From a virus: 64,000 bases of DNA. The DNA is taken from positions 1 through 64,000 of the IMG/VR virus record IMGVR_UViG_3300013005_000002. One strand, 5' to 3'. The notes beneath the pieces were generated by a model that was given only the letters and a program-made list of their open reading frames with translations, ran no database searches and was not told the DNA's origin. A program made the translations under genes and the position numbers. Shown in pieces: positions 8,249-46,332 of this stretch. The stretch's first letter is position 1. Every line of letters begins with the position of its first letter.

Positions 8249-8446
8249 TTAGTCATCAAACACACTATCTGTTGAATTTCTTTGAGGAAATTCAAGTTTT
8301 ACATCAGGCTGTAATATAGACATTACGGCTTCAATCCAAGCTAAAGATACTTGTAGTTCTCCAGGTACATCGTATGTTGTACCATTGCGATAGTTTTGTT
8401 TAGCCATTTCATTAATTTTATTTATTTGTTCATTAGTTATTTTCAT
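8249..8446 (-). CDS. Hypothetical protein (MKITNEQ...)
   Basis: ORF track with the start moved to ATG 8446. Confidence 0.55.
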   Translation of the reverse strand: MKITNEQINKINEMAKQNYRNGTTYDVPGELQVSLAWIEAVMSILQPDVKLEFPQRNSTDSVFDD

Positions 8447-8606
8447 AAAAAACGCTCCAATATATATTAAACGCAATCTGATAATCTAAAATAAGTTCAA
8501 GTGGATAAAAAACTTTAATAAATTCATATGATGTATTTAAATGTGAGTATAAAATAGGTTCATACATGTCATAAAAACCAAAATCAATATTTTTATATTT
8601 TCTCAT
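8433..8606 (-). CDS. MKKY-family microprotein, 57 aa
   Basis: MRKYKNIDFGFYDMYEPILYSHLNTSYEFIKVFYPLELILDYQIAFNIYWSVFYENN; ATGA overlap with upstream ORF. Confidence 0.75.
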   Translation of the reverse strand: MRKYKNIDFGFYDMYEPILYSHLNTSYEFIKVFYPLELILDYQIAFNIYWSVFYENN

Positions 8607-8767
8607 GTAAAAAATCCAAAAAAATGATAAGTATAAAATTCAAAAAGTTTAAAATTTTGTGTTATTTTAAATTTCATTACATCATCCCAATATTTTTTAT
8701 ATAAAATATGTCTAAGATTAGGTGAAGAAATTTTATTAACAGTAAATATTATTTTATATTTTCTCAT
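8603..8767 (-). CDS. MKKY-family microprotein, 54 aa
   Basis: MRKYKIIFTVNKISSPNLRHILYKKYWDDVMKFKITQNFKLFEFYTYHFFGFFT; upstream ORF ends NEKI* inside the motif. Confidence 0.75.
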   Translation of the reverse strand: MRKYKIIFTVNKISSPNLRHILYKKYWDDVMKFKITQNFKLFEFYTYHFFGFFT

Positions 8768-10677: not shown

Positions 10678-10707
10678 ATTGTATACCTTATGTTTAAATT
10701 ATGTCAA
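10678..10707 (-). promoter_or_regulatory. sigma70-type promoter (near-leaderless)
   Basis: TTGACA-N18-TACAAT, 5 nt before ATG 10672. Confidence 0.6.
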
Positions 10708-10866
10708 ATATTTTAATTGTACTTCAGCAATTGTTTTAAGTCTTATAAAAAGAGGATAATAAATAGAATTACTAAGTTTTGATTCTAATTTAATTAAAAT
10801 TGTAATATTAAATTTATACCTTTCATAATTATTTAAATAAATTTTTAGATTTTGATATTTTTTCAT
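10699..10866 (-). CDS. MKKY-family microprotein, 55 aa
   Basis: MKKYQNLKIYLNNYERYKFNITILIKLESKLSNSIYYPLFIRLKTIAEVQLKYLT. Confidence 0.75.
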   Translation of the reverse strand: MKKYQNLKIYLNNYERYKFNITILIKLESKLSNSIYYPLFIRLKTIAEVQLKYLT

Positions 10867-10867
10867 A

Positions 10868-11035
10868 TTAAATCATTCCGAGTAATTTATGTTTATAAAT
10901 AAAAAAGGATTGTTTTATGGTGGGATAAATTGATTCAAAAGCCCATAAATGAAGTTTACTTCTAAGTGAATATATTACTTGTTCATCTATATTAGAATAA
11001 ATCATTTTAGCGCCAATATTTTTATACTTTTTCAC
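10868..11035 (-). CDS. MKKY-family microprotein, 55 aa (GTG start)
   Basis: MKKYKNIGAKMIYSNIDEQVIYSLRSKLHLWAFESIYPTIKQSFFIYKHKLLGMI; GTGA overlap with VWA gene stop. Confidence 0.75.
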   Translation of the reverse strand: MKKYKNIGAKMIYSNIDEQVIYSLRSKLHLWAFESIYPTIKQSFFIYKHKLLGMI

Positions 11036-13928: not shown

Positions 13929-14141
13929 TTAAGTTAAATTTTCTATTAAGTAATTAGTAAAATAATAAGCTTTTCTATAATCAATGTATACCGAATGAAA
14001 ACCAGAGTCTATATCATAATTAATTTTATCTAAAAATTGACCCATTTGATAATTAAGATGGTCACTAAGAAATAAAGATTCAATAGGCCAATTAACTACA
14101 TGTGTTTTTTGTTCAAACTTTAAATTACTGTACTTTTTCAC
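13929..14141 (-). CDS. MKKY-family microprotein, 70 aa (GTG start)
   Basis: ORF track MKKYSNLKFEQ...; GTGA overlap. Confidence 0.75.
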   Translation of the reverse strand: MKKYSNLKFEQKTHVVNWPIESLFLSDHLNYQMGQFLDKINYDIDSGFHSVYIDYRKAYYFTNYLIENLT

Positions 14142-20239: not shown

Positions 20240-20338
20240 GGGGGTATAGCGGTTCTGTGGGTCTTGATATGTGCAAATATAGCCACACAGCAAACGGACC
20301 ATTTTTTCATATTTTTTGCTAAATACATGTGTCCAAAA

Positions 20339-20349
20339 TAACAAGTTAG
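20339..20349 (+). promoter_or_regulatory. Late-promoter-like motif
   Basis: TAACAAGTTAG about 20 nt before ATG 20369. Confidence 0.65.
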
Positions 20350-20368
20350 ATAAACCCCTGGAGTTAGT

Positions 20369-21112
20369 ATGAAGATAATGTCTAGCACGTGTAAATGTTG
20401 CAAACAAACCAAAACAAAGATAGCTAAAAAAGAAGGAAATAAATTTAATTATGTTGATGAAAATAATACACTCTGGAAAGGTAGGTATTGCCCTTCCTGT
20501 AAAAAAGAATATACAGCAAGTTACAATAAACTAAAGCCCCGGCCATCCGCCTACAAAAAATCAACTAAACCTCTTTTGGATAAAACTTGTACTGTTTGCA
20601 AAACAGAGTTTAAAACAAAAAATCCAAGACAAGGACTATGTTCTAAGGAATGCAGAAGACAAGTTAAAAATTTAAAACGTAGAAAACCTCTATCTCCTAA
20701 AAAAGTAAAAGAACCAAAAATTGTACATCCTAAAAATTGTCTGACATGCAGTAAAAGCTTTTTACCTAAAAACTCACGAGGTAACTATTGTCAAAAAAAA
20801 TGTATGCCTAGTGAAATTAAGTATCGCAAGAAAAGTAATCATACCGCTGCTGCCAAAAAACTAAGAAAACAACGAAAGCTTGTGCAAAAGTTTAAACAAC
20901 CTATATCAAAGAAGTTTAAAAAAGAAATATTAGAAATATACGCTAGTAAACCTGAAGGATACGAGATAGACCACATTGTGCCTATAAACCATCCTGACGT
21001 ATGTGGATTACATGTGCCTTGGAATTTAAAAGTTTTAGCTAAAGAAGATAATTTAAAAAAGTCTAATAAGTTTGATGGTACTAATGAAAATAATAATTGG
21101 GCTATCCTATAA
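20369..21112 (+). CDS. HNH endonuclease with N-terminal zinc ribbons
   Basis: Multiple CxxC; EIDHIVP..CGLHVPWNL..N..KSNK. Confidence 0.85.
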   Translation: MKIMSSTCKCCKQTKTKIAKKEGNKFNYVDENNTLWKGRYCPSCKKEYTASYNKLKPRPSAYKKSTKPLLDKTCTVCKTEFKTKNPRQGLCSKECRRQVKNLKRRKPLSPKKVKEPKIVHPKNCLTCSKSFLPKNSRGNYCQKKCMPSEIKYRKKSNHTAAAKKLRKQRKLVQKFKQPISKKFKKEILEIYASKPEGYEIDHIVPINHPDVCGLHVPWNLKVLAKEDNLKKSNKFDGTNENNNWAIL

Positions 21113-21269
21113 ATAGTACACTATTCTTCATTACTCTCCAATACAACTTGCTATACAGGGATAAGGATAGTCCTGTATAAATGTTAGACCTTAAATCAAT
21201 TGGCATTGAAAGCACGTTAATTGTTCTATCTAAATTAAACACTATTACTACCCTATTATATTTTCTCAT
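21102..21269 (-). CDS. MKKY microprotein a, 55 aa
   Basis: MRKYNRVVIVFNLDRTINVLSMPIDLRSNIYTGLSLSLYSKLYWRVMKNSVLFIG. Confidence 0.75.
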   Translation of the reverse strand: MRKYNRVVIVFNLDRTINVLSMPIDLRSNIYTGLSLSLYSKLYWRVMKNSVLFIG

Positions 21270-21418
21270 TAATAATACACTTTCCGCATAATAGCTAGAT
21301 ACACCATAAAATACTGAGGACCACTTTCTGCAATTATAGTTTCTACGCTTGGTGACAATAATCCTATGTATTTAAATTTATAAACATTAGTTACTTCTAT
21401 GTTTTTATACTTTCTCAT
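21269..21418 (-). CDS. MKKY microprotein b, 49 aa
   Basis: MRKYKNIEVTNVYKFKYIGLLSPSVETIIAESGPQYFMVYLAIMRKVYY; paralogue of d. Confidence 0.8.
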   Translation of the reverse strand: MRKYKNIEVTNVYKFKYIGLLSPSVETIIAESGPQYFMVYLAIMRKVYY

Positions 21419-21569
21419 AAAGAGAATCTCTCATATTTTTAAACAACTGATTATAGTCACTAAAGTCTAACAAAGAAAATCTTCTTTCTGTTATAAGAAG
21501 TATATTATAACATATATCGTTACTCATTTGAAAAGATAAATTCATTTCAATTATTTTATATTTCTTCAT
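21405..21569 (-). CDS. MKKY microprotein c, 54 aa
   Basis: MKKYKIIEMNLSFQMSNDICYNILLITERRFSLLDFSDYNQLFKNMRDSLYEKV. Confidence 0.75.
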   Translation of the reverse strand: MKKYKIIEMNLSFQMSNDICYNILLITERRFSLLDFSDYNQLFKNMRDSLYEKV

Positions 21570-21721
21570 TAATAAAACACTTTTCTCATCACAGCAAGTC
21601 TCACCATAAAATACTGAGGTAAAGCCCCTGCAATTAAAGTTTGAAGATTAGGCGCTATTTGTTGATACATTCTATTTCTACCATTAATATTGTTTATTAC
21701 TATTCTATTATACTTCTTCAT
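21569..21721 (-). CDS. MKKY microprotein d, 50 aa
   Basis: MKKYNRIVINNINGRNRMYQQIAPNLQTLIAGALPQYFMVRLAVMRKVFY. Confidence 0.8.
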   Translation of the reverse strand: MKKYNRIVINNINGRNRMYQQIAPNLQTLIAGALPQYFMVRLAVMRKVFY

Positions 21722-21861
21722 ACCTTACCTATATACTTTGCATTCATATATAATGCCAAAAGTGGATAATAGTCACATACAGTCAAATCAAGTTCTCGGG
21801 CTAAGCGGTCATACGCTATCATTGGAATAAAATCTATACTTACTAAATTATATTTTTTCAT
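21718..21861 (-). CDS. MKKY microprotein e, 47 aa
   Basis: MKKYNLVSIDFIPMIAYDRLARELDLTVCDYYPLLALYMNAKYIGKV. Confidence 0.75.
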   Translation of the reverse strand: MKKYNLVSIDFIPMIAYDRLARELDLTVCDYYPLLALYMNAKYIGKV

Positions 21862-22018
21862 CATATCCCATTACCTTACTTATACTTAACATAGCAAAGA
21901 AATAAAACATTGCTATTCTAAGATTCCATACTGGCTTTAATTCTACAAGAGTATTATATTGTATAGAACGACGTAAGCTTTCTTTAATACGTAAATCTAA
22001 ATTGTTATATTTTTTCAT
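21848..22018 (-). CDS. MKKY microprotein f, 56 aa
   Basis: MKKYNNLDLRIKESLRRSIQYNTLVELKPVWNLRIAMFYFFAMLSISKVMGYDEKI. Confidence 0.75.
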   Translation of the reverse strand: MKKYNNLDLRIKESLRRSIQYNTLVELKPVWNLRIAMFYFFAMLSISKVMGYDEKI

Positions 22019-22021
22019 GTT

Positions 22022-22171
22022 TTACCAAAATAAAGGATACATTGGAATAAATATAAAACCACTTATAATTGTATGAATACGTAGTTCAGTTGCGTAATTT
22101 ACTTCATACTTGAGTCCTTCTATTTTATTTAGAGTTAACCCCTTTATTTTTATGCATTTATATTTTTTCAT
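22022..22171 (-). CDS. MKKY microprotein g, 49 aa
   Basis: MKKYKCIKIKGLTLNKIEGLKYEVNYATELRIHTIISGFIFIPMYPLFW; paralogue of i. Confidence 0.8.
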   Translation of the reverse strand: MKKYKCIKIKGLTLNKIEGLKYEVNYATELRIHTIISGFIFIPMYPLFW

Positions 22172-22335
22172 ATATTTTCTTTTAAAGCATAACACACTCT
22201 AGCATAAACCTGAAATCCAAAAGGTAAAAGAATTTCTTTAGACAGTTTATAATAAAATAAAACTTCAATTTGCGTTTTAAATACAGAGTTAAGATGACTG
22301 GATACTCCAGTATGTATATTTTTATATTTTCTCAT
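22168..22335 (-). CDS. MKKY microprotein h, 55 aa
   Basis: MRKYKNIHTGVSSHLNSVFKTQIEVLFYYKLSKEILLPFGFQVYARVCYALKENI. Confidence 0.75.
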   Translation of the reverse strand: MRKYKNIHTGVSSHLNSVFKTQIEVLFYYKLSKEILLPFGFQVYARVCYALKENI

Positions 22336-22487
22336 ATTTCACCAAAAAGAAACCACACAGGAAGATATGGAAACTGTCCTAGTATTATGTGGATATACAA
22401 TTCAGTTTTATAATCTACCTCATACTTATAGCTTTCTATTTTATTAAGAGTTAGTCCCCTCATTTTTATGCACTCATACTTCTTCAT
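22332..22487 (-). CDS. MKKY microprotein i, 51 aa
   Basis: MKKYECIKMRGLTLNKIESYKYEVDYKTELYIHIILGQFPYLPVWFLFGEI. Confidence 0.8.
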   Translation of the reverse strand: MKKYECIKMRGLTLNKIESYKYEVDYKTELYIHIILGQFPYLPVWFLFGEI

Positions 22488-22635
22488 AATATAATGCTTC
22501 ATTTCTTAATTTACACATTATTTGCCAAAATCCTTGGTCAAAGACCACATCTATTTGATGCGTAGTTTCAAAATTAAAACTCCGACATTGATATAAATTT
22601 TTATAGTACAGGTATATTCTATTATATTTCTTCAT
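22474..22635 (-). CDS. MKKY microprotein j, 53 aa
   Basis: MKKYNRIYLYYKNLYQCRSFNFETTHQIDVVFDQGFWQIMCKLRNEALYYEEV. Confidence 0.75.
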   Translation of the reverse strand: MKKYNRIYLYYKNLYQCRSFNFETTHQIDVVFDQGFWQIMCKLRNEALYYEEV

Positions 22636-22792
22636 AAATATAATGTTTCACTTTAAATTTTATTTGATGAGCAGTATGATGTGCACCTGTCGATAAAGCA
22701 GGAAATTTTATATATTTTGTCTGGTTTAAAAACAGTACACTTAACTGGTATCTTAAGCTAAACCATAAACTATAATTATGATATTTTCTCAT
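22622..22792 (-). CDS. MKKY microprotein k, 56 aa
   Basis: MRKYHNYSLWFSLRYQLSVLFLNQTKYIKFPALSTGAHHTAHQIKFKVKHYIYEEI. Confidence 0.75.
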   Translation of the reverse strand: MRKYHNYSLWFSLRYQLSVLFLNQTKYIKFPALSTGAHHTAHQIKFKVKHYIYEEI

Positions 22793-23202
22793 TTAACACA
22801 TATCACTTCTCTAATTAAAACTATAATCCAAGTTTTATCTCCCCTAGTTACTGTAATCTCTACTTTAGTACCAGGCTTACCCCTGATCTCTTCATTAGAG
22901 TGTATAACATCCCCGGCTTTAAGTCCAGCTTTAAATGCTGGGTATCCTTCATATACAGATTCAATTAAGGGAAATCCAGAAAGACCTATACCACCAAATG
23001 TATCCACACAGGCTTCACCTGGATTATCTCCTTTAGGAATAATAATGGTTTCTTCAAGTCCCCCTTTTGGATGATCGCCGCTACCTAATTCCTGCAAATC
23101 AACGGTGATTGATTTAGGCTGCTGAGGGGAGATGAAAATAAGCGACACCAATCCAAAATGGATAAGAGTACTAGCTATAAAAAATTTTATATCTCTAAAC
23201 AT
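22789..23202 (-). CDS. Membrane-anchored PDZ-domain protein
   Basis: N-terminal TM with S..IH; FGGIGL; PAFKAGLKAGDVI; IRGKPGTKVEITVTRG (S41/CtpA-type PDZ). Confidence 0.8.
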   Translation of the reverse strand: MFRDIKFFIASTLIHFGLVSLIFISPQQPKSITVDLQELGSGDHPKGGLEETIIIPKGDNPGEACVDTFGGIGLSGFPLIESVYEGYPAFKAGLKAGDVIHSNEEIRGKPGTKVEITVTRGDKTWIIVLIREVICVK

Positions 23203-23368
23203 TTTTTAATACACCACTGGATATCTTATAATTAAATACTAACGAAATAAATAGTTTGGATATTTTATTCTCCACCATGTACCCAGCATTTTTTCTAATA
23301 TAGCCGAGGTAGTGATAATACACTTGGTCATATACTTGACCTATGTGTACTGGTTTATATTTTTTCAA
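23195..23368 (-). CDS. MKKY-family microprotein, 57 aa (TTG start)
   Basis: MKKYKPVHIGQVYDQVYYHYLGYIRKNAGYMVENKISKLFISLVFNYKISSGVLKNV; TTGA overlap. Confidence 0.7.
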   Translation of the reverse strand: MKKYKPVHIGQVYDQVYYHYLGYIRKNAGYMVENKISKLFISLVFNYKISSGVLKNV

Positions 23369-24720: not shown

Positions 24721-24749
24721 AGTTTAAAATATAATTTAGGACAAGTCAA
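24721..24749 (-). promoter_or_regulatory. sigma70-type promoter
   Basis: TTGACT-N17-TAAACT. Confidence 0.55.
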
Positions 24750-24945
24750 TATATAATACACTATTTATAAAAAAAGTGCTATCTAGAATATTATCCCATA
24801 GCCACCCCGGATTTTTTAAATCTTCAGGAGAATCTTTAGTCCATCTAGTAATGTATTCACTTATCTCATATCTTGGATCATCCATAAAATATTCTTTTAA
24901 TATTTCAAAGCCTTTATTAAATTCTACATTACGATATTTTCTCAT
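24736..24945 (-). CDS. MKKY-family microprotein, 69 aa
   Basis: ORF track MRKYRNVEF...; ATGA overlap. Confidence 0.75.
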   Translation of the reverse strand: MRKYRNVEFNKGFEILKEYFMDDPRYEISEYITRWTKDSPEDLKNPGWLWDNILDSTFFINSVLYIDLS

Positions 24946-25121
24946 AAAAATAGATTATTATTCCAAAGCAATCGGTTTAATAGAAGTTCTTCTATTAATC
25001 TTACTTCAAGAAAATTAATACTTTTTAATGTTGTGTACATATGATCACTAATGTAGCGTCTATATTGTGTATGAATTTCAAATACTTCGTATACAAGCAC
25101 TGTTTTTTTATACTTTCTCAT
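24942..25121 (-). CDS. MKKY-family microprotein, 59 aa
   Basis: MRKYKKTVLVYEVFEIHTQYRRYISDHMYTTLKSINFLEVRLIEELLLNRLLWNNNLFL; TTGATT-N16-TATTAT 6 nt upstream. Confidence 0.75.
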   Translation of the reverse strand: MRKYKKTVLVYEVFEIHTQYRRYISDHMYTTLKSINFLEVRLIEELLLNRLLWNNNLFL

Positions 25122-25168
25122 TTAAATATAATACACTTTTATTTAAATTAATCAAGGAAAATATGATG

Positions 25169-25199: not shown

Positions 25200-25463
25200 A
25201 TGTCAGATAAATCCCCGGCCAAAGGTAAAAGATTTAGTAAGCTGTTTAAGAATCCTGAGACTGGTAGGATGAATAAGGTATCTTATGGACAAGCTGGTAA
25301 AGCTTCTGACGGTGGAGATAGGATTAGGCCGGGCACAGATAAAGCTGCGGCTTACTGCGCTAGGAGTAACAAGATTAAAGGTGACTGGAGAAGTGACCCC
25401 AATAGTCCTAATAATTTAAGCAGACGTAAGTGGAAGTGTGTAGGGGATAAGTCTAGGAAGTAA
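25200..25463 (+). CDS. Small basic phage protein (YCARS..W family)
   Basis: ORF track; GAGGT SD. Confidence 0.7.
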   Translation: MSDKSPAKGKRFSKLFKNPETGRMNKVSYGQAGKASDGGDRIRPGTDKAAAYCARSNKIKGDWRSDPNSPNNLSRRKWKCVGDKSRK

Positions 25464-33449: not shown

Positions 33450-34764
33450 CTTCTAATAGTACCATAACTGCAAGCTCACTTAAACCACTAAATACTCTAT
33501 CTCCTGTATTTAATTGATTGTATTGGTCTAATTTATCTCCATAAGCAAATTCTGAGTGCTTTAGTAATCCTAGAGGAATTGGAGTTGTATTAGTTTTAAG
33601 TCCAATAGAATTATCATAGGTCCAGGTTAATGGATCTTCTTCATACATATATTCTTTAGCTTCTTCTAAGTACTTAGCGGTAATCATGTCTGGTGCTACT
33701 TCTTTAATTAATCCAACAAAATACAAGTTATACCAGGATTTACTTAAGTTAAAGATATATCTAAGCGCAAATCTATACACAAACTTTTCAACCTTAGTGT
33801 CAGCAAGCTTTAAAAGGATGTAAAGCGCATGAACACAATTGGCATCATTGAAATATCCACGTCTATCTGGTAAATATGCGGTAGGTAATAATGATAACAA
33901 TGAATAACCTTTTTTATAGAAAAGATTCCAATATTCTTTTTCACTGCTTTTGGATTTATTCTTTTTAGCGTTAGTTTTAAGTGCTGCCAGAATTGTTAAA
34001 GCTTGTGCTCCTACAGTTTCTAGTCCAGGTTGAAACATTGCCCGACTGGATTTCATTCTTACTGCCTCTGGTCTTAAACTAGCTTCTTTTAATCGTTTAT
34101 TCCATAGAGTTTTATATGGTTCATCTGGTGGTTCTTGTGCTTCAAGTATAGAATAATCAAACTCTATGATATTACTAACTAATTGGTCATATTTTTCAAG
34201 AAGCAGTTCTTGAGATGAATTTTGTAAATTAGTATCAAGCATAGCTAAAGATAAACCTAAAAGCATATCACCTGATGTAGATTTCATATTAAATATAAAT
34301 TTATTCTCTGTGTAATCCCACTTGTAGCCGCGAGCTAAGTAGTTACCTTGCATACACTGAGTAAGAGCATAATCCATCTGAGCATTTCTTTTGCCTAGTT
34401 TAGACATTAAAAATACATACTGACCATGTCTCAATAGCTGATGGTCCGGACTGTGGTTTGCTCCGTTTAAAACATCAATAAGCTTATTTCTAGGTAAGTA
34501 TAGCTCATAGAATTCATTCTTAAGTACAGGAAGAAATTTAAGGATTTTTTGCATCCGTTGAGTCTTTTGCGTTTTATTTAAACGCCTAGCGACAGGAGGA
34601 CGTTTTTTATATTTAAATTTATTGTATAAAATACCGTAGATGCCTAAACATCCAATAAGTAATAGTTTAATTGGAAGACTAATCCAATGTAAAGTATCTC
34701 TAATAATATTTTTAAATGTATTGGTTTTAACATCAGTAACAATTTCTAAATATTTATTTAACAC
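33406..34764 (-). CDS. Hypothetical 452-aa protein with N-terminal membrane anchor
   Basis: ORF track; AGGAG SD. Confidence 0.7.
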   Translation of the reverse strand: MLNKYLEIVTDVKTNTFKNIIRDTLHWISLPIKLLLIGCLGIYGILYNKFKYKKRPPVARRLNKTQKTQRMQKILKFLPVLKNEFYELYLPRNKLIDVLNGANHSPDHQLLRHGQYVFLMSKLGKRNAQMDYALTQCMQGNYLARGYKWDYTENKFIFNMKSTSGDMLLGLSLAMLDTNLQNSSQELLLEKYDQLVSNIIEFDYSILEAQEPPDEPYKTLWNKRLKEASLRPEAVRMKSSRAMFQPGLETVGAQALTILAALKTNAKKNKSKSSEKEYWNLFYKKGYSLLSLLPTAYLPDRRGYFNDANCVHALYILLKLADTKVEKFVYRFALRYIFNLSKSWYNLYFVGLIKEVAPDMITAKYLEEAKEYMYEEDPLTWTYDNSIGLKTNTTPIPLGLLKHSEFAYGDKLDQYNQLNTGDRVFSGLSELAVMVLLEDEIYENITNPKSFN

Positions 34765-34922
34765 AAATAATCTCCTAAATTAAAAAATTCATCTTCTCTA
34801 AGAATATCTACAGTATCAACTAATTTAGTAGTATATTTAATAAAAAAGTTATCCCTAAAAAATGGGTATTTTTTAGCTAATATACCAGGAGTGTCTACCT
34901 CTATTTTTTGATATCTTTTCAT
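34758..34922 (-). CDS. MKKY-family microprotein, 54 aa
   Basis: MKRYQKIEVDTPGILAKKYPFFRDNFFIKYTTKLVDTVDILREDEFFNLGDYLC; ATGA overlap. Confidence 0.7.
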   Translation of the reverse strand: MKRYQKIEVDTPGILAKKYPFFRDNFFIKYTTKLVDTVDILREDEFFNLGDYLC

Positions 34923-43436: not shown

Positions 43437-43471
43437 ATTTTTTAATTACTTGTATTTTTTAGAGATTATCC

Positions 43472-43500
43472 TTGACTTTTATGTATTTTTTAGAGATAAT
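43472..43500 (+). promoter_or_regulatory. sigma70-type promoter
   Basis: TTGACT-N17-GATAAT. Confidence 0.65.
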
Positions 43501-43521
43501 AATTTACATAGGAGTTTTTCA

Positions 43522-44985
43522 GTGACAAAAAAATGTAGTAAATGTAATTTAGAAAAAACTTTAGATTTATTTCCTAATTTAAAAAGGTCTAAAGACGGCA
43601 AGTATCCTCAATGTAAAGAATGTAAATCAAGTATAGATAAACAATATTATAGTTTTAATTCCGATAAAGTTAAAAATAATGCAAAAAATTATTATTCTAA
43701 TAATAAAGAAAACATTCTTCAAAATATAAACAAAGAAGCTAAGTCTCTATATAGAAAACAATATTACGAAAAAAATAAACATATTGAATTAGAAAACGGC
43801 AAGCAATATAAAGAACACAATAAAGAGTTTCTTTCTAAAAAAAGATCAGAGTATCGTAAAGAAAATAGAAATAAAATTAATGAATATACTAGAAATCGTA
43901 AAAAAGTAGACCCGTTGTTTAGACTAGGTATTAATTTAAGAAAAAGACTTGGTGAAGTATTAAGAAATAAAGATATCATTAAAACCCAAAAACTTAATGA
44001 TTATATAGGATGTTCTAAAGATGAACTAATTAAACACATAGAATCTCAATTTAAATCTAATATGAATTGGGAAAATTACGGAACTGTTTGGAATATAGAC
44101 CACATAATCCCTTTGTCTGCTGGCAAAACAGAAAACCATCTATATCAGCTTTCACATTATAAAAATTTACGCCCATTAGACTGTATGGAAAATTTTAAAA
44201 AGAATAATAAAATTGAAGTGTGTTGGCAAAAATTTCAAAGAGATAAAAACTTAGATAATGATATTAAAAGTGGATTTAATTTTAATTTAACTCCTTCTGA
44301 TTTCATTCTTTCTATAGAAAAGCTTTCATTAGAGCATAGAAAATTTATTCAAAAATATGAATGGTTAGGTACAATTGGATTTGGGGTTAAGTGGGTATTT
44401 ACCGCTAGATATAAGGACGATTTGGCTGGGGTTGTTATGGTATCCGAACCTAATTCATACCATTTTGGTAAGGAAGAGGCTTTGATCCAAAGAGGAGCGG
44501 TATCTAGTTGGGCTCCTAAAAATTTAAATAGTAAATTAGTTATGTTTGCTTGTAGATGGATGGTTAGAAATACAGAAAAAAGAATTTTTACTGCTTATTC
44601 TGACGTTGAAGCTGGTGAAATAGGAACTATCTATCAAGCTTGTAATTTTGATTACTTAGGGCAAGGATTTGGTGCGTCGGTTTACTATAAATTAGCTGAT
44701 GGTAGAGTGAAAGGATCTAGATATTTTACTAGAACTTCTGCTATGAAAAAATGGGCTAAGGAGTTAAACATTGAATGGAAATCAGAATGGTGTAAGGCAA
44801 ATGGGTTTCAAGACGTAGCTAAAATCCCTCAAATCATAAAAGATTATGCTAAAGAAAAGATGAAAGAATGTGAAAAAGTACAACAATTGTCCAAACACAA
44901 GTATGCATTATTATTAAATTATGGTAAAAATAAAATTAATAAGCAATGGATACCTAAACCATATCCAAAAAGGATTAAGGATTAA
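43522..44985 (+). CDS. HNH endonuclease fused to a Mom-like (GNAT-fold) DNA adenine modification domain
   Basis: GTG start after AGGAG; N-terminal CxxC..CxxC and W.IDHIIPL..HYKNLRPL..EN.KK; C-terminal FIQKYEWLG..APKNLNSKL..AYSDVEAGEIGTIYQACNFDYLG. Confidence 0.7.
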   Translation: MTKKCSKCNLEKTLDLFPNLKRSKDGKYPQCKECKSSIDKQYYSFNSDKVKNNAKNYYSNNKENILQNINKEAKSLYRKQYYEKNKHIELENGKQYKEHNKEFLSKKRSEYRKENRNKINEYTRNRKKVDPLFRLGINLRKRLGEVLRNKDIIKTQKLNDYIGCSKDELIKHIESQFKSNMNWENYGTVWNIDHIIPLSAGKTENHLYQLSHYKNLRPLDCMENFKKNNKIEVCWQKFQRDKNLDNDIKSGFNFNLTPSDFILSIEKLSLEHRKFIQKYEWLGTIGFGVKWVFTARYKDDLAGVVMVSEPNSYHFGKEEALIQRGAVSSWAPKNLNSKLVMFACRWMVRNTEKRIFTAYSDVEAGEIGTIYQACNFDYLGQGFGASVYYKLADGRVKGSRYFTRTSAMKKWAKELNIEWKSEWCKANGFQDVAKIPQIIKDYAKEKMKECEKVQQLSKHKYALLLNYGKNKINKQWIPKPYPKRIKD

Positions 44986-45400
44986 ACATCCTACTCTTTC
45001 TATCAGTTCTCACACCTAAGTCAAGGTGAACCCACGTCGTGACCTTACCTTTAGTAAAATCAGGATTTTCCAACCACAGCTCATATTTCTTTAGTACCTC
45101 AGGCTTCCCTTTCAGTATCCCCGCTATACTCTGCTTACTATCATCCAAAATGTCCACAGCTAAGCACTGTGTATGCAAGCTCTTCTTAGCAGCATTTGCA
45201 ATCTGCGCATTTACAGCACTTGGTCTAAATCCTGAACTCACCTTAAGCTTAGTTGTATCAATCCCGCACTCAGCCAAACAAGCATTTACAGCTTTAAGCA
45301 ACTTTGCTGCATTATCCAAATATTCTTGCGTAAGTTCCTTATTTTTTTCTCTGTCTGGATATGCTCCGCTTGCTGTCAAATATTCACGTAAATCAATCAT
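44975..45400 (-). CDS. Peptidase M15-type endolysin
   Basis: SSGFRP..N; KSLH....AVD; WVHLD. Confidence 0.85.
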   Translation of the reverse strand: MIDLREYLTASGAYPDREKNKELTQEYLDNAAKLLKAVNACLAECGIDTTKLKVSSGFRPSAVNAQIANAAKKSLHTQCLAVDILDDSKQSIAGILKGKPEVLKKYELWLENPDFTKGKVTTWVHLDLGVRTDRKSRMFNP

Positions 45401-45557
45401 AAATTTCCTCTATTGATGTTATAATATGGTGTATTTCTTGTCTAGTACTAATTATTTTCCAAAATAACCATCCATAATTAGTGCGATAAGTCATGTCAGA
45501 AAGAAATCTAGAAATTCTAAACGTGTCTCTACTCAATACGTTATTATATTTTTTCAT
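45393..45557 (-). CDS. MKKY-family microprotein, 54 aa
   Basis: MKKYNNVLSRDTFRISRFLSDMTYRTNYGWLFWKIISTRQEIHHIITSIEEIYD. Confidence 0.75.
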   Translation of the reverse strand: MKKYNNVLSRDTFRISRFLSDMTYRTNYGWLFWKIISTRQEIHHIITSIEEIYD

Positions 45558-45736
45558 ATTAAATTATCTCCCGATAAATCATTACACAAAAAATATAGTA
45601 AATTATAAACATTAAAATCCATAAATAATCCATGAAAAAATATACTACCATAATAAGCTACTCCTAATTGTATAAACAAAAAAGGAGCCATTTTTGCGTT
45701 AGAATCTGTTCTTAAAACTGCATTATACTTTCTCAT
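45554..45736 (-). CDS. MKKY-family microprotein, 60 aa
   Basis: MRKYNAVLRTDSNAKMAPFLFIQLGVAYYG...; upstream gene ends DEKV* inside the motif. Confidence 0.75.
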   Translation of the reverse strand: MRKYNAVLRTDSNAKMAPFLFIQLGVAYYGSIFFHGLFMDFNVYNLLYFLCNDLSGDNLI

Positions 45737-46177
45737 CTGCTTCAACTACATTACCTTTTTTATCATAAAATTTTAAAATCAAGCATTGCTCGTGAGTATC
45801 ACCATCCATAGTAGTTTCCAGCGTATATTTCTTAACTTTACTAATATCTACAATATCAGCAAAATCCTCTAAGTCCAAGTAACAATTACCTTTTTTATCT
45901 TTTTTCACTTTAATATTTTTCATAACTTTACCTCATATTCATTAAATAATTCATATAGTTGCTCTCTTACTGCCTCAAGTACTGCTACTGTAATCTCTGG
46001 ATGTGTCTTTAATAACTCAGCAAGTTTAGGATCACTCGATGATTCATACTTTAATGCTGATCGTAAATATGTCATGTCTAGTTCCCATAAAATACAGTGC
46101 ATGGCTCCGGCTTTGCAAGTAGTTTCATATTCTTCTCTTTCTTCTGGTAAGTTAAATTCTAGTATAGCTTTTGGCAT
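45723..46177 (-). other. Two hypothetical genes (45723-45923, 45920-46177)
   Basis: ORF track. Confidence 0.65.
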
Positions 46178-46332
46178 ATTACACTTCCTGTCTTATTTAG
46201 TACGTCTAGTTTTACCCACCAACGTTCTAGTTTAGCCGGGCGTTTCACATAAGTTACACCTAGCTGCATCCATAACACAAATCCAAAACGCAGAGGGTAT
46301 TTGTAATTAGAAATAGGTTGATATTTTCTCAT
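46159..46332 (-). CDS. MKKY-family microprotein, 57 aa
   Basis: MRKYQPISNYKYPLRFGFVLWMQLGVTYVKRPAKLERWWVKLDVLNKTGSVICQKLY; GAGG SD. Confidence 0.75.
   Translation of the reverse strand: MRKYQPISNYKYPLRFGFVLWMQLGVTYVKRPAKLERWWVKLDVLNKTGSVICQKLY

Follow-up and report, generated by a model that had tools for sequence, protein, structure and literature searches.

A tandem array of small minus-strand genes with a common 14-nt head in a phage from lake water: a possible translation junction that could also guide the turnover of units

Introduction

In T4-type phages, the hyperplastic regions hold PeSL, an intergenic element of ~100 bp which joins a sigma-70 promoter to a terminator stem-loop and acts on transcription (Arbiol et al. 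2010, PMC2839356). In T4 itself, a capsid targeting sequence of ~10 residues forms the constant N-terminus of small proteins that are otherwise unrelated and polymorphic (PMC3012670, PMC9026906, PMC8442874). Concerning translation, overlaps of 4 nt and 1 nt between consecutive genes were reported to cause a strict coupling of termination and reinitiation (PMC6728339, PMC10666635), A-rich first codons to promote the formation of 70S initiation complexes (PMC12661326), and AADUAU, a hexanucleotide encoding Lys/Asn-Tyr, to be among the two motifs most enriched in high expressers in an E. coli reporter library that exceeds 250,000 variants (Verma et al. 2019, PMC6920384). The locus described here resembles each of these systems in part. 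It is an array of 11 small minus-strand open reading frames (ORFs), located at positions 21102-22792 of a 64-kb stretch of virus DNA and all starting with a common 14-nt head. This stretch, hereafter the window, makes up the initial 64 kb of the complete 79,790-bp virus record IMGVR_UViG_3300013005_000002.

From the sequence, there would be about an even chance that two things hold together, i.e., that these ORFs and their dispersed relatives, 23 in all, are real, fast-evolving mini-genes restricted to this phage lineage, and that their constant head is mainly a compact translation junction which serves also as recombination homology. The evidence that carries this proposal is the tiling of the array, the coding signature of the ORFs, the composition and surroundings of the head and the position of the breakpoints found in close relatives.

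The array and its family

As claimed by the original prediction, 11 minus-strand ORFs of 47-56 amino acids, counted from an M[KR]KY start, tile positions 21102-22792. Their start-to-start spacings are 157, 148, 152, 164, 153, 157, 140, 152, 151 and 149 bp, the same list as in that prediction, read from the other end. Of the 1,691 bp of the array, 99.8% is covered by ORFs that start with ATG and have at least 45 amino acids. A tiling of this kind is far beyond what is obtained from simulated sequence of the same composition, since 1,000 first-order Markov simulations of the stretch gave a mean of 0.27 ORFs of at least 45 amino acids, a maximum of 3 and a top coverage of 29%. Tandem Repeats Finder does not report any repeat of ~150 bp at this place and the array is thus hidden at the DNA level.

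Looking for the head pattern in the whole genome led to 25 matches on the minus strand and 2 on the plus strand, for 1.7 expected (maximum of 6 in 200 simulations). ORFs of 47-70 amino acids open from 23 of the 25 minus-strand matches, the other two being located inside larger genes. The family therefore totals 23 members, 11 in the array and 12 dispersed, which have the same start. They all lie between 8.4 and 46.3 kb, in minus-strand accessory regions, and the structural module is on the strand opposite to all of them. None of the other N-termini listed for this genome starts like the family head.

Coding evidence and variable bodies

Four lines of evidence, namely codon usage, the ratio of nonsynonymous to synonymous polymorphism (pN/pS), unstructured starts and public gene predictions, make the ORFs of the family look like real genes. 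With a codon model trained on the long genes of the phage, the log-likelihood per codon is +0.24/+0.39 in the annotated frame, -0.6 to -0.87 in the shifted frames and ~-0.5 in antisense; the small genes that do not belong to the family score ~+0.4. The pooled pN/pS calculated against the orthologues of L001, a locus of a closely related contig, is 0.50, or ~0.31 from per-gene counts when the member located at 13929 is left aside, and that of the flanking genes is 0.08-0.25. The fold energy of the region from -20 to +25 averages -2.95 kcal/mol at the family starts and -3.04 at the other gene starts, compared to -4.25 at random positions (p 0.026). Furthermore, several proteins of the family were also predicted by public gene callers.

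The constant head followed by variable bodies, as initially described, is for the most part upheld: the ORFs appear to form a real family of small genes and most of the bodies cannot be aligned. Two pairs of clear paralogues are exceptions, 22022/22332 (U7/U9, z 27; units being designated here from U11, the first in the array, to U1, the last) and 21269/21569 (U2/U4, z 18). U7 and U9 share 61% identity with a ratio of nonsynonymous to synonymous substitution rates (dN/dS) of 0.21, their synonymous sites being saturated, and U2 and U4 have a dN/dS of 0.63. A few further pairs, such as 45554/46159, are weakly related. Over the whole family, in-register comparison of the bodies does not exceed shuffles, whether it is anchored at the N-terminal end (z -0.8) or at the C-terminal end (z 1.9). 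No amphipathic periodicity was found in the bodies, and neither a common amphipathic helix nor a common amphipathic strand was seen. A common fold, to which the original prediction had looked, did not emerge from structure prediction either: the two AlphaFold models considered, whose predicted local distance difference test (pLDDT) values are 64 and 56, each consist of only one long low-confidence helix. Altogether, the bodies look like young and weakly constrained peptides.

In another explanation, the units would be translated but mostly useless proto-genes. The head would then be a selfish start cassette spreading by recombination and holding open whatever AT-rich stretch follows it, while most bodies would drift near-neutrally and the units would be freely lost. 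Several properties of the bodies agree with this. Their amino-acid composition is close to what DNA of an equal base composition would give when translated at random (Kullback-Leibler divergence (KL) 0.064, r 0.91), and farther from that of the large (KL 0.161) or small (KL 0.098) proteins of the phage; the bodies show neither amphipathic periodicity nor positional conservation, and the pLDDT of the models is low. Moreover, one member has a dN/dS of 1.1, five of the 11 units are dispensable in a relative and sister phages lack the family. However, all of the 23 frames stay open for ~50 codons in DNA of 31-33% G+C, the pooled pN/pS is below 1 and U7 and U9 have remained 61% identical despite their saturated synonymous sites. 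In addition, compared with the random expectation, the bodies are depleted in Cys and enriched in Asp, Glu, Tyr and Trp. It is therefore considered unlikely that most units are useless.

The head as a translation junction

The head consists of 14 nt, ATG-ARA-AAR-TAT-AA. Conservation is limited to positions +1 to +14, with in addition a T at +20 and at +26, and nothing is conserved upstream of the ATG. At the protein level, M1, [KR]2, K3 and Y4 are nearly invariant in the family, Tyr4 being strictly so. Besides its start codon, the head contains stops in the two other frames, TGA in frame +2 and either TAA or TGA in frame +3, and thus an upstream ORF in either of these frames ends inside the head. 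A stop at nt 12-14 is found in 17 of the 23 family genes versus 8 of the 54 others, and the sequence ATGA at the start in all 23 versus 25 of 54.

Of the 23 members, 21 either adjoin or overlap an ORF located upstream. Eleven of these junctions are ATGA overlaps, two are TAATG overlaps and six are 14-nt overlaps, in which the upstream ORF stops at nt 12-14 of the head. One more member abuts the upstream ORF, another has the upstream stop one codon before its start and the last two have no upstream ORF. The genes of the phage that do not belong to the family possess clear and strong Shine-Dalgarno (SD) sites of the AAGGAG type. For the duplex with the anti-SD, the median energy amounts to -3.3 kcal/mol in the family versus -5.8 for the large genes, -5.5 for the small non-family genes and -1.0 for random positions (p 1e-4 and 2e-3).

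The composition of the first codons is also peculiar. The fraction of A in codons 2-6 reaches 0.66 in the family versus 0.43 and 0.51 for comparison, and AADUAU occupies codons 3-4, as Lys-Tyr, in 21 of the 23 heads. No K or N followed by Y is found at residues 3-4 among the other N-termini listed for the genome. Promoter-like sites of the region are as frequent as expected by chance (32 versus 29.2 +/- 4.8) and no minus-strand terminator was found there.

The weak SD sites, the abutting or overlapping ORFs and the stops carried by the head lead us to read it as a start/stop junction. According to this proposal, the units would be parts of polycistronic messages, and the head would be a compact translation junction, providing a start codon along with stops that end the preceding ORF in either other frame. 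The A-rich run and the Lys-Tyr codons 3-4 could favour restart and early elongation in these genes with weak SD sites. Translation would restart at the heads, which is most conjectural for the 14-nt overlaps, and the effect of Lys-Tyr seen in E. coli would carry over to the host of this phage. The products could be accessory peptides that act on the host and of which none is indispensable by itself. Phages have variable early regions, and it is only from this general knowledge that a host-acting role is assumed. The effector roles envisaged by the original prediction, in anti-defence, host takeover or superinfection exclusion, receive no support from the present analysis.

Several observations weigh against this proposal. 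Residue 7 is aliphatic (Ile, Val or Leu) in 21 of the 23 members, which use six codons for it, and a hydrophobic residue is found at position 9 in most cases. Furthermore, the members starting at 25121 and 46332 keep the head although they have no upstream ORF and need no coupling. A residue maintained through varied codons and a head kept where there is nothing to couple suggest some constraint at the peptide level; it is thus likely that the head peptide itself is constrained, beyond the 14 nt. The bodies do not display any amphipathic pattern, common positions or confident fold, which makes their usefulness as proteins uncertain. The studies on coupling dealt with -4 and -1 overlaps (PMC6728339, PMC10666635), and restart over a 14-nt overlap goes beyond them; the Lys-Tyr expression result, which comes from E. 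coli, may not hold for the host of this phage (PMC6920384).

A constraint on the head peptide is what would be expected from a protein-level tag. In such a case, the first 7-9 residues would dock all peptides of the family, 23 in number, to a single partner, such as the assembling capsid for packaging and injection of varied cargo, or to some other common machine. The T4 tag, MKTYQEFIAE (PMC8442874), directs targeting mainly via its residues 4 and 7 (PMC9026906); in the family, Tyr4 never varies and 21 of the 23 members have Ile, Val or Leu at residue 7, through varied codons. Furthermore, the internal proteins of T-even phages form a very varied group of proteins countering defence, which have only the tag in common (PMC3012670). 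However, the family has no preferred residue at positions 8-10, where processing is specified in T4, and its members fall in a narrow range of 47-70 amino acids on the strand opposite to the structural module. The portal is P22-like, which does not correspond to a T4-type head. The prohead proteases PF03420 (S77) and PF04586 (S78) were not found in the complete genome, but the control for PF03420 gave no match anywhere, which makes that search uninformative, and a protease of divergent sequence could have escaped notice. Finally, the weak SD sites and the stops within the head are explained without any tag. We judge a docking tag rather improbable as the reason for the constant head, which is more readily read as a translation junction.

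Another possibility is that the array is not coding at all and is a DNA or RNA repeat of ~150 bp, such as a regulatory array, a series of promoters for a phage polymerase or cassettes of the integron or diversity-generating retroelement (DGR) type. The regular period, the conserved 14-nt element and the variable spacers would fit such a repeat. However, conservation does not extend upstream of the ATG, no Rfam match and no tandem repeat were found, promoter-like sites do not exceed chance, and the complete genome encodes neither a tyrosine integrase nor a reverse transcriptase. Coding is favoured by frames that stay open, by a codon usage specific to the frame and by a pN/pS below 1. A non-coding array appears very improbable and is close to refuted.

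Several more precise candidates were rejected. Integron cassettes are not retained, PF00589 being absent from the complete genome while the control matched in 14 of 14 genomes. The same is true for DGR targets (PF00078 is absent and no other stretch of the genome resembles the unit bodies), for an RNA element (no Rfam match) and for precursors of ribosomally synthesized and post-translationally modified peptides (only 4-9 residues are conserved and the scanned neighbours have no match to an enzyme family).

Turnover of units between close relatives

The array was compared with that of contig L001/L002 and with L018, which comes from another record and is 99.8% identical to L002. The flanks of these relatives match the window at 93-99% identity, but their array has six units versus 11 here. 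In L001, U8-U11 are gone, U4-U7 are found at 96% identity, U2-U3 are replaced by one unrelated unit and U1 is only 68% identical. The junction of the U8-U11 deletion is inside the head itself and the replacement of U2-U3 starts ~20 nt past a head. At another place, L002 harbours a different unit instead of the unit located at 10699, after the orthologue of 10868, and divergence begins ~25 nt past the head. All three breakpoints mapped against L001, L002 and L018 are therefore located in a head or at most ~25 nt past it.

Since every unit carries the same head, the heads could double as short homologies. Recombination between them could delete, add or replace whole units while leaving the translational chain unbroken. 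The cassette-like behaviour suggested by the original prediction is thus borne out by a relative with six units instead of 11, by a replacement together with a diverged unit and by the presence of the breakpoints at heads.

A broader view can be formulated, in which the head would be a portable gene-start cassette. It would end any preceding frame, efficiently restart translation without a ribosome-binding site and turn arbitrary AT-rich sequence into mini-genes. These genes would move by head-to-head recombination, the array being a nursery where new small proteins are made, tested and discarded. Taken as a whole, this view is speculative and seems unlikely to be right in full.

A further difference between these relatives lies in the same accessory region: positions 567-1301 of L001, compared with 25414-25458 of the window, hold ~730 nt that are extra in the relative and contain no ORF on the strand shown.

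Source genome and distribution of the family

The full virus record is a complete genome of 79,790 bp with direct terminal repeats. The window, with ~33% G+C, encodes a P22-like portal, a large terminase, a major head protein and a class II ribonucleotide reductase; no tRNA gene was found in it. The public sequencing runs in which this stretch occurs are lake-water metagenomes, with DNA runs that contain 67-87% of the words. Five lake metatranscriptome runs contain 5-12% of the sampled words, shares which do not constitute evidence of transcription. A similarity search at the DNA level against GenBank phages did not reveal any similar phage.

An exhaustive profile search among 1.84 billion proteins gave 12 matches, which are all the family itself. 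In the same way, a word-seeded profile search recovered only the family, from this phage or from near-identical contigs, and PHROGs, Pfam and the ESM Atlas gave no real match. Contigs of 79-81 kb carry close relatives of the units. Consequently, the units do not correspond to any family described in PHROGs or Pfam or outside their own family in the profile search, in keeping with what had been anticipated from the letters alone.

A DNA pattern of three heads was searched as well. In IMG/VR, it is restricted to this lineage. Its 22 matches in JGI metagenomes include 21 near-identical satellites or repeats within proteins, and one (L018) that belongs to this lineage, whereas the four matches in GTDB species genomes are all plain repeats. 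The sister phages, with 50-58% portal identity (five near-complete, three of them estimated to be at least 94% complete), have 0-2 heads each, and 38 portal loci amounting to 452 kb have none. Reading G001-G003 in full did not reveal any other over-represented N-terminal tetrapeptide among their small ORFs. In the collections searched, the family is therefore absent outside this phage lineage and its sister phages are devoid of it.

Units of the array and neighbouring genes

The units follow each other on the minus strand. U11 (22622-22792, 56 amino acids), the first in the array, begins with MRKY and its ATGA overlaps the stop of the gene that precedes it. U11 ends 14 nt into the head of U10 (22474-22635, 53 amino acids). 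The next unit, U9 (22332-22487, 51 amino acids), has a 14-nt overlap with a TGA at nt 12-14 of its head, and U8 (22168-22335, 55 amino acids) an ATGA overlap; U8 is missing from L001 together with U9-U11. The four following units are retained in L001: U7 (22022-22171, 49 amino acids), the paralogue of U9; U6 (21848-22018, 56 amino acids), for which the upstream stop is one codon ahead of the ATG; U5 (21718-21861, 47 amino acids), with a 14-nt overlap; and U4 (21569-21721, 50 amino acids), the paralogue of U2, with an ATGA overlap. U3 (21405-21569, 54 amino acids) shows a TAATG overlap and U2 (21269-21418, 49 amino acids) a 14-nt overlap, and the single unrelated unit of L001 stands for both. 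The last unit, U1 (21102-21269, 55 amino acids), is the one that has 68% nucleotide identity with its L001 counterpart, and its 3' end overlaps a convergent gene.

Some in-frame upstream starts resemble partial extra heads. This is the case at 22332-22502 and 22022-22195, on the minus strand, where for example M-K-H-Y-I is found just before M-K-K-Y.

The gene directly upstream of the array (22789-23202, minus strand), which shares the ATGA overlap with U11 and is also present in L001, encodes a protein of 137 amino acids in which a hydrophobic segment at the N-terminus accompanies a PDZ-like region. The latter scores 24.5 bits, which is below the Pfam threshold of 27. The C-terminal E-[KE]-[VI] carried by several units was considered as a possible PDZ ligand and rejected, since a unit that overlaps the following head by 14 nt reads this head in a different frame and must end in this way.

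The convergent gene that meets U1 (20369-21112, plus strand) encodes a protein of 247 amino acids with CxxC-rich repeats and a C-terminal HNH-like motif. This protein has no match to the HNH families of Pfam and no relative in the PDB, but matches phrog_26577, of unknown function. It is absent from L001, where ~55 nt are found in place of the gene and its surroundings (~20244-21101). It looks like a free-standing homing-endonuclease insertion, and the high divergence of U1 (68%) is as expected beside an insertion of this type.

Dispersed members

All of the dispersed members are on the minus strand and several are grouped. Two of them are located at 8433-8606 and 8603-8767, and two others at 10699-10866 and 10868-11035, the latter with a GTG start. 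The member located at 13929-14141 (70 amino acids) also has a GTG start, with TAC at codon 4; compared with its orthologue (L001 10741-10953), its dN/dS is 1.1, and its neighbours are ~95% identical. A member with a TTG start (23195-23368, 57 amino acids) lies one gene upstream of the array. Two more are found at 24736-24945 and 24942-25121. The one starting at 25121 is not preceded by any ORF and seems to be the first in a series of minus-strand genes whose end is the array. Its ATG lies 7 nt past the end of a promoter-like site (TTGATT, 16 nt, TATTAT; 25121-25160, minus strand), and this first gene of the series may thus be expressed from a leaderless or near-leaderless message.

The member located at 34758-34922 has a variant head, MKRY. 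Finally, an island at 45393-46332 comprises three members (45393-45557, 45554-45736 and 46159-46332) and two small genes of another kind. The genes on either side of this island, at 45.4-46.4 kb, have homologues in G001 that adjoin each other, and both the island and its three members are lacking there. Positions 43450-44985 (plus strand) encode a protein of 511 amino acids whose N-terminal part is endonuclease VII/HNH-like and which also has a Mom-like domain for DNA modification (phrog_1035, phrog_1384).

Comparison with known systems

If the proposed role of the head is right, 14 bases would be enough to end the previous gene in any frame, to restart the ribosome without a Shine-Dalgarno site and to give a safe point of recombination. 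What the PeSL cassettes are for transcription, the array would then be for translation, and it would represent a natural use of the Lys-Tyr start motif, so far known from synthetic E. coli libraries. It also offers a concrete and testable example of the creation and turnover of tiny ORFan genes by phages. The head could also serve as a compact coupling element in synthetic operons.

The claim that no described system has this layout was too strong, the hyperplastic regions shuffled by PeSL (PMC2839356) and the tagged internal proteins of T4 (PMC3012670) being close analogues. Like the T4 proteins, the family joins a constant N-terminus to unrelated small proteins, and M-K-x-Y-x-x-hydrophobic is common to both, including the positions 4 and 7 used for targeting in T4. 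However, the family differs from the T4 internal proteins by the lack of a conserved processing site at residues 8-10 and by a different type of head.

The junctions can be compared with the coupled ATGA and TAATG pairs already described (PMC6728339, PMC10666635), as 13 of the 23 are -4 or -1 overlaps with a weak downstream SD site. Unlike these known pairs, they form a chain of up to 11 junctions with one fixed head, and six of them are 14-nt overlaps made possible by a second stop in the head. In the same way, the exact hexanucleotide of the K|N-Y ramp motif (PMC6920384) is present at codons 3-4 in 21 of the 23 heads; this motif was defined in synthetic E. coli reporters, and no account was found of a natural gene family in which it is a constant element.

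The closest likeness is with the hyperplastic regions of T4-type phages. In both cases, runs of small ORFan genes occupy accessory regions, and from one close relative to another whole genes are inserted, deleted or replaced at a short conserved motif, located beside each gene, that keeps the recombinants expressible (PMC2839356). Unlike the intergenic PeSL, the motif of this array is only 14 nt long, lies inside the coding sequence and is proposed to act on translation, no promoter or terminator having been found for each unit. On present evidence, the array belongs among the phage regions known as hyperplastic ORFan regions and does not amount to a system of an entirely new category.

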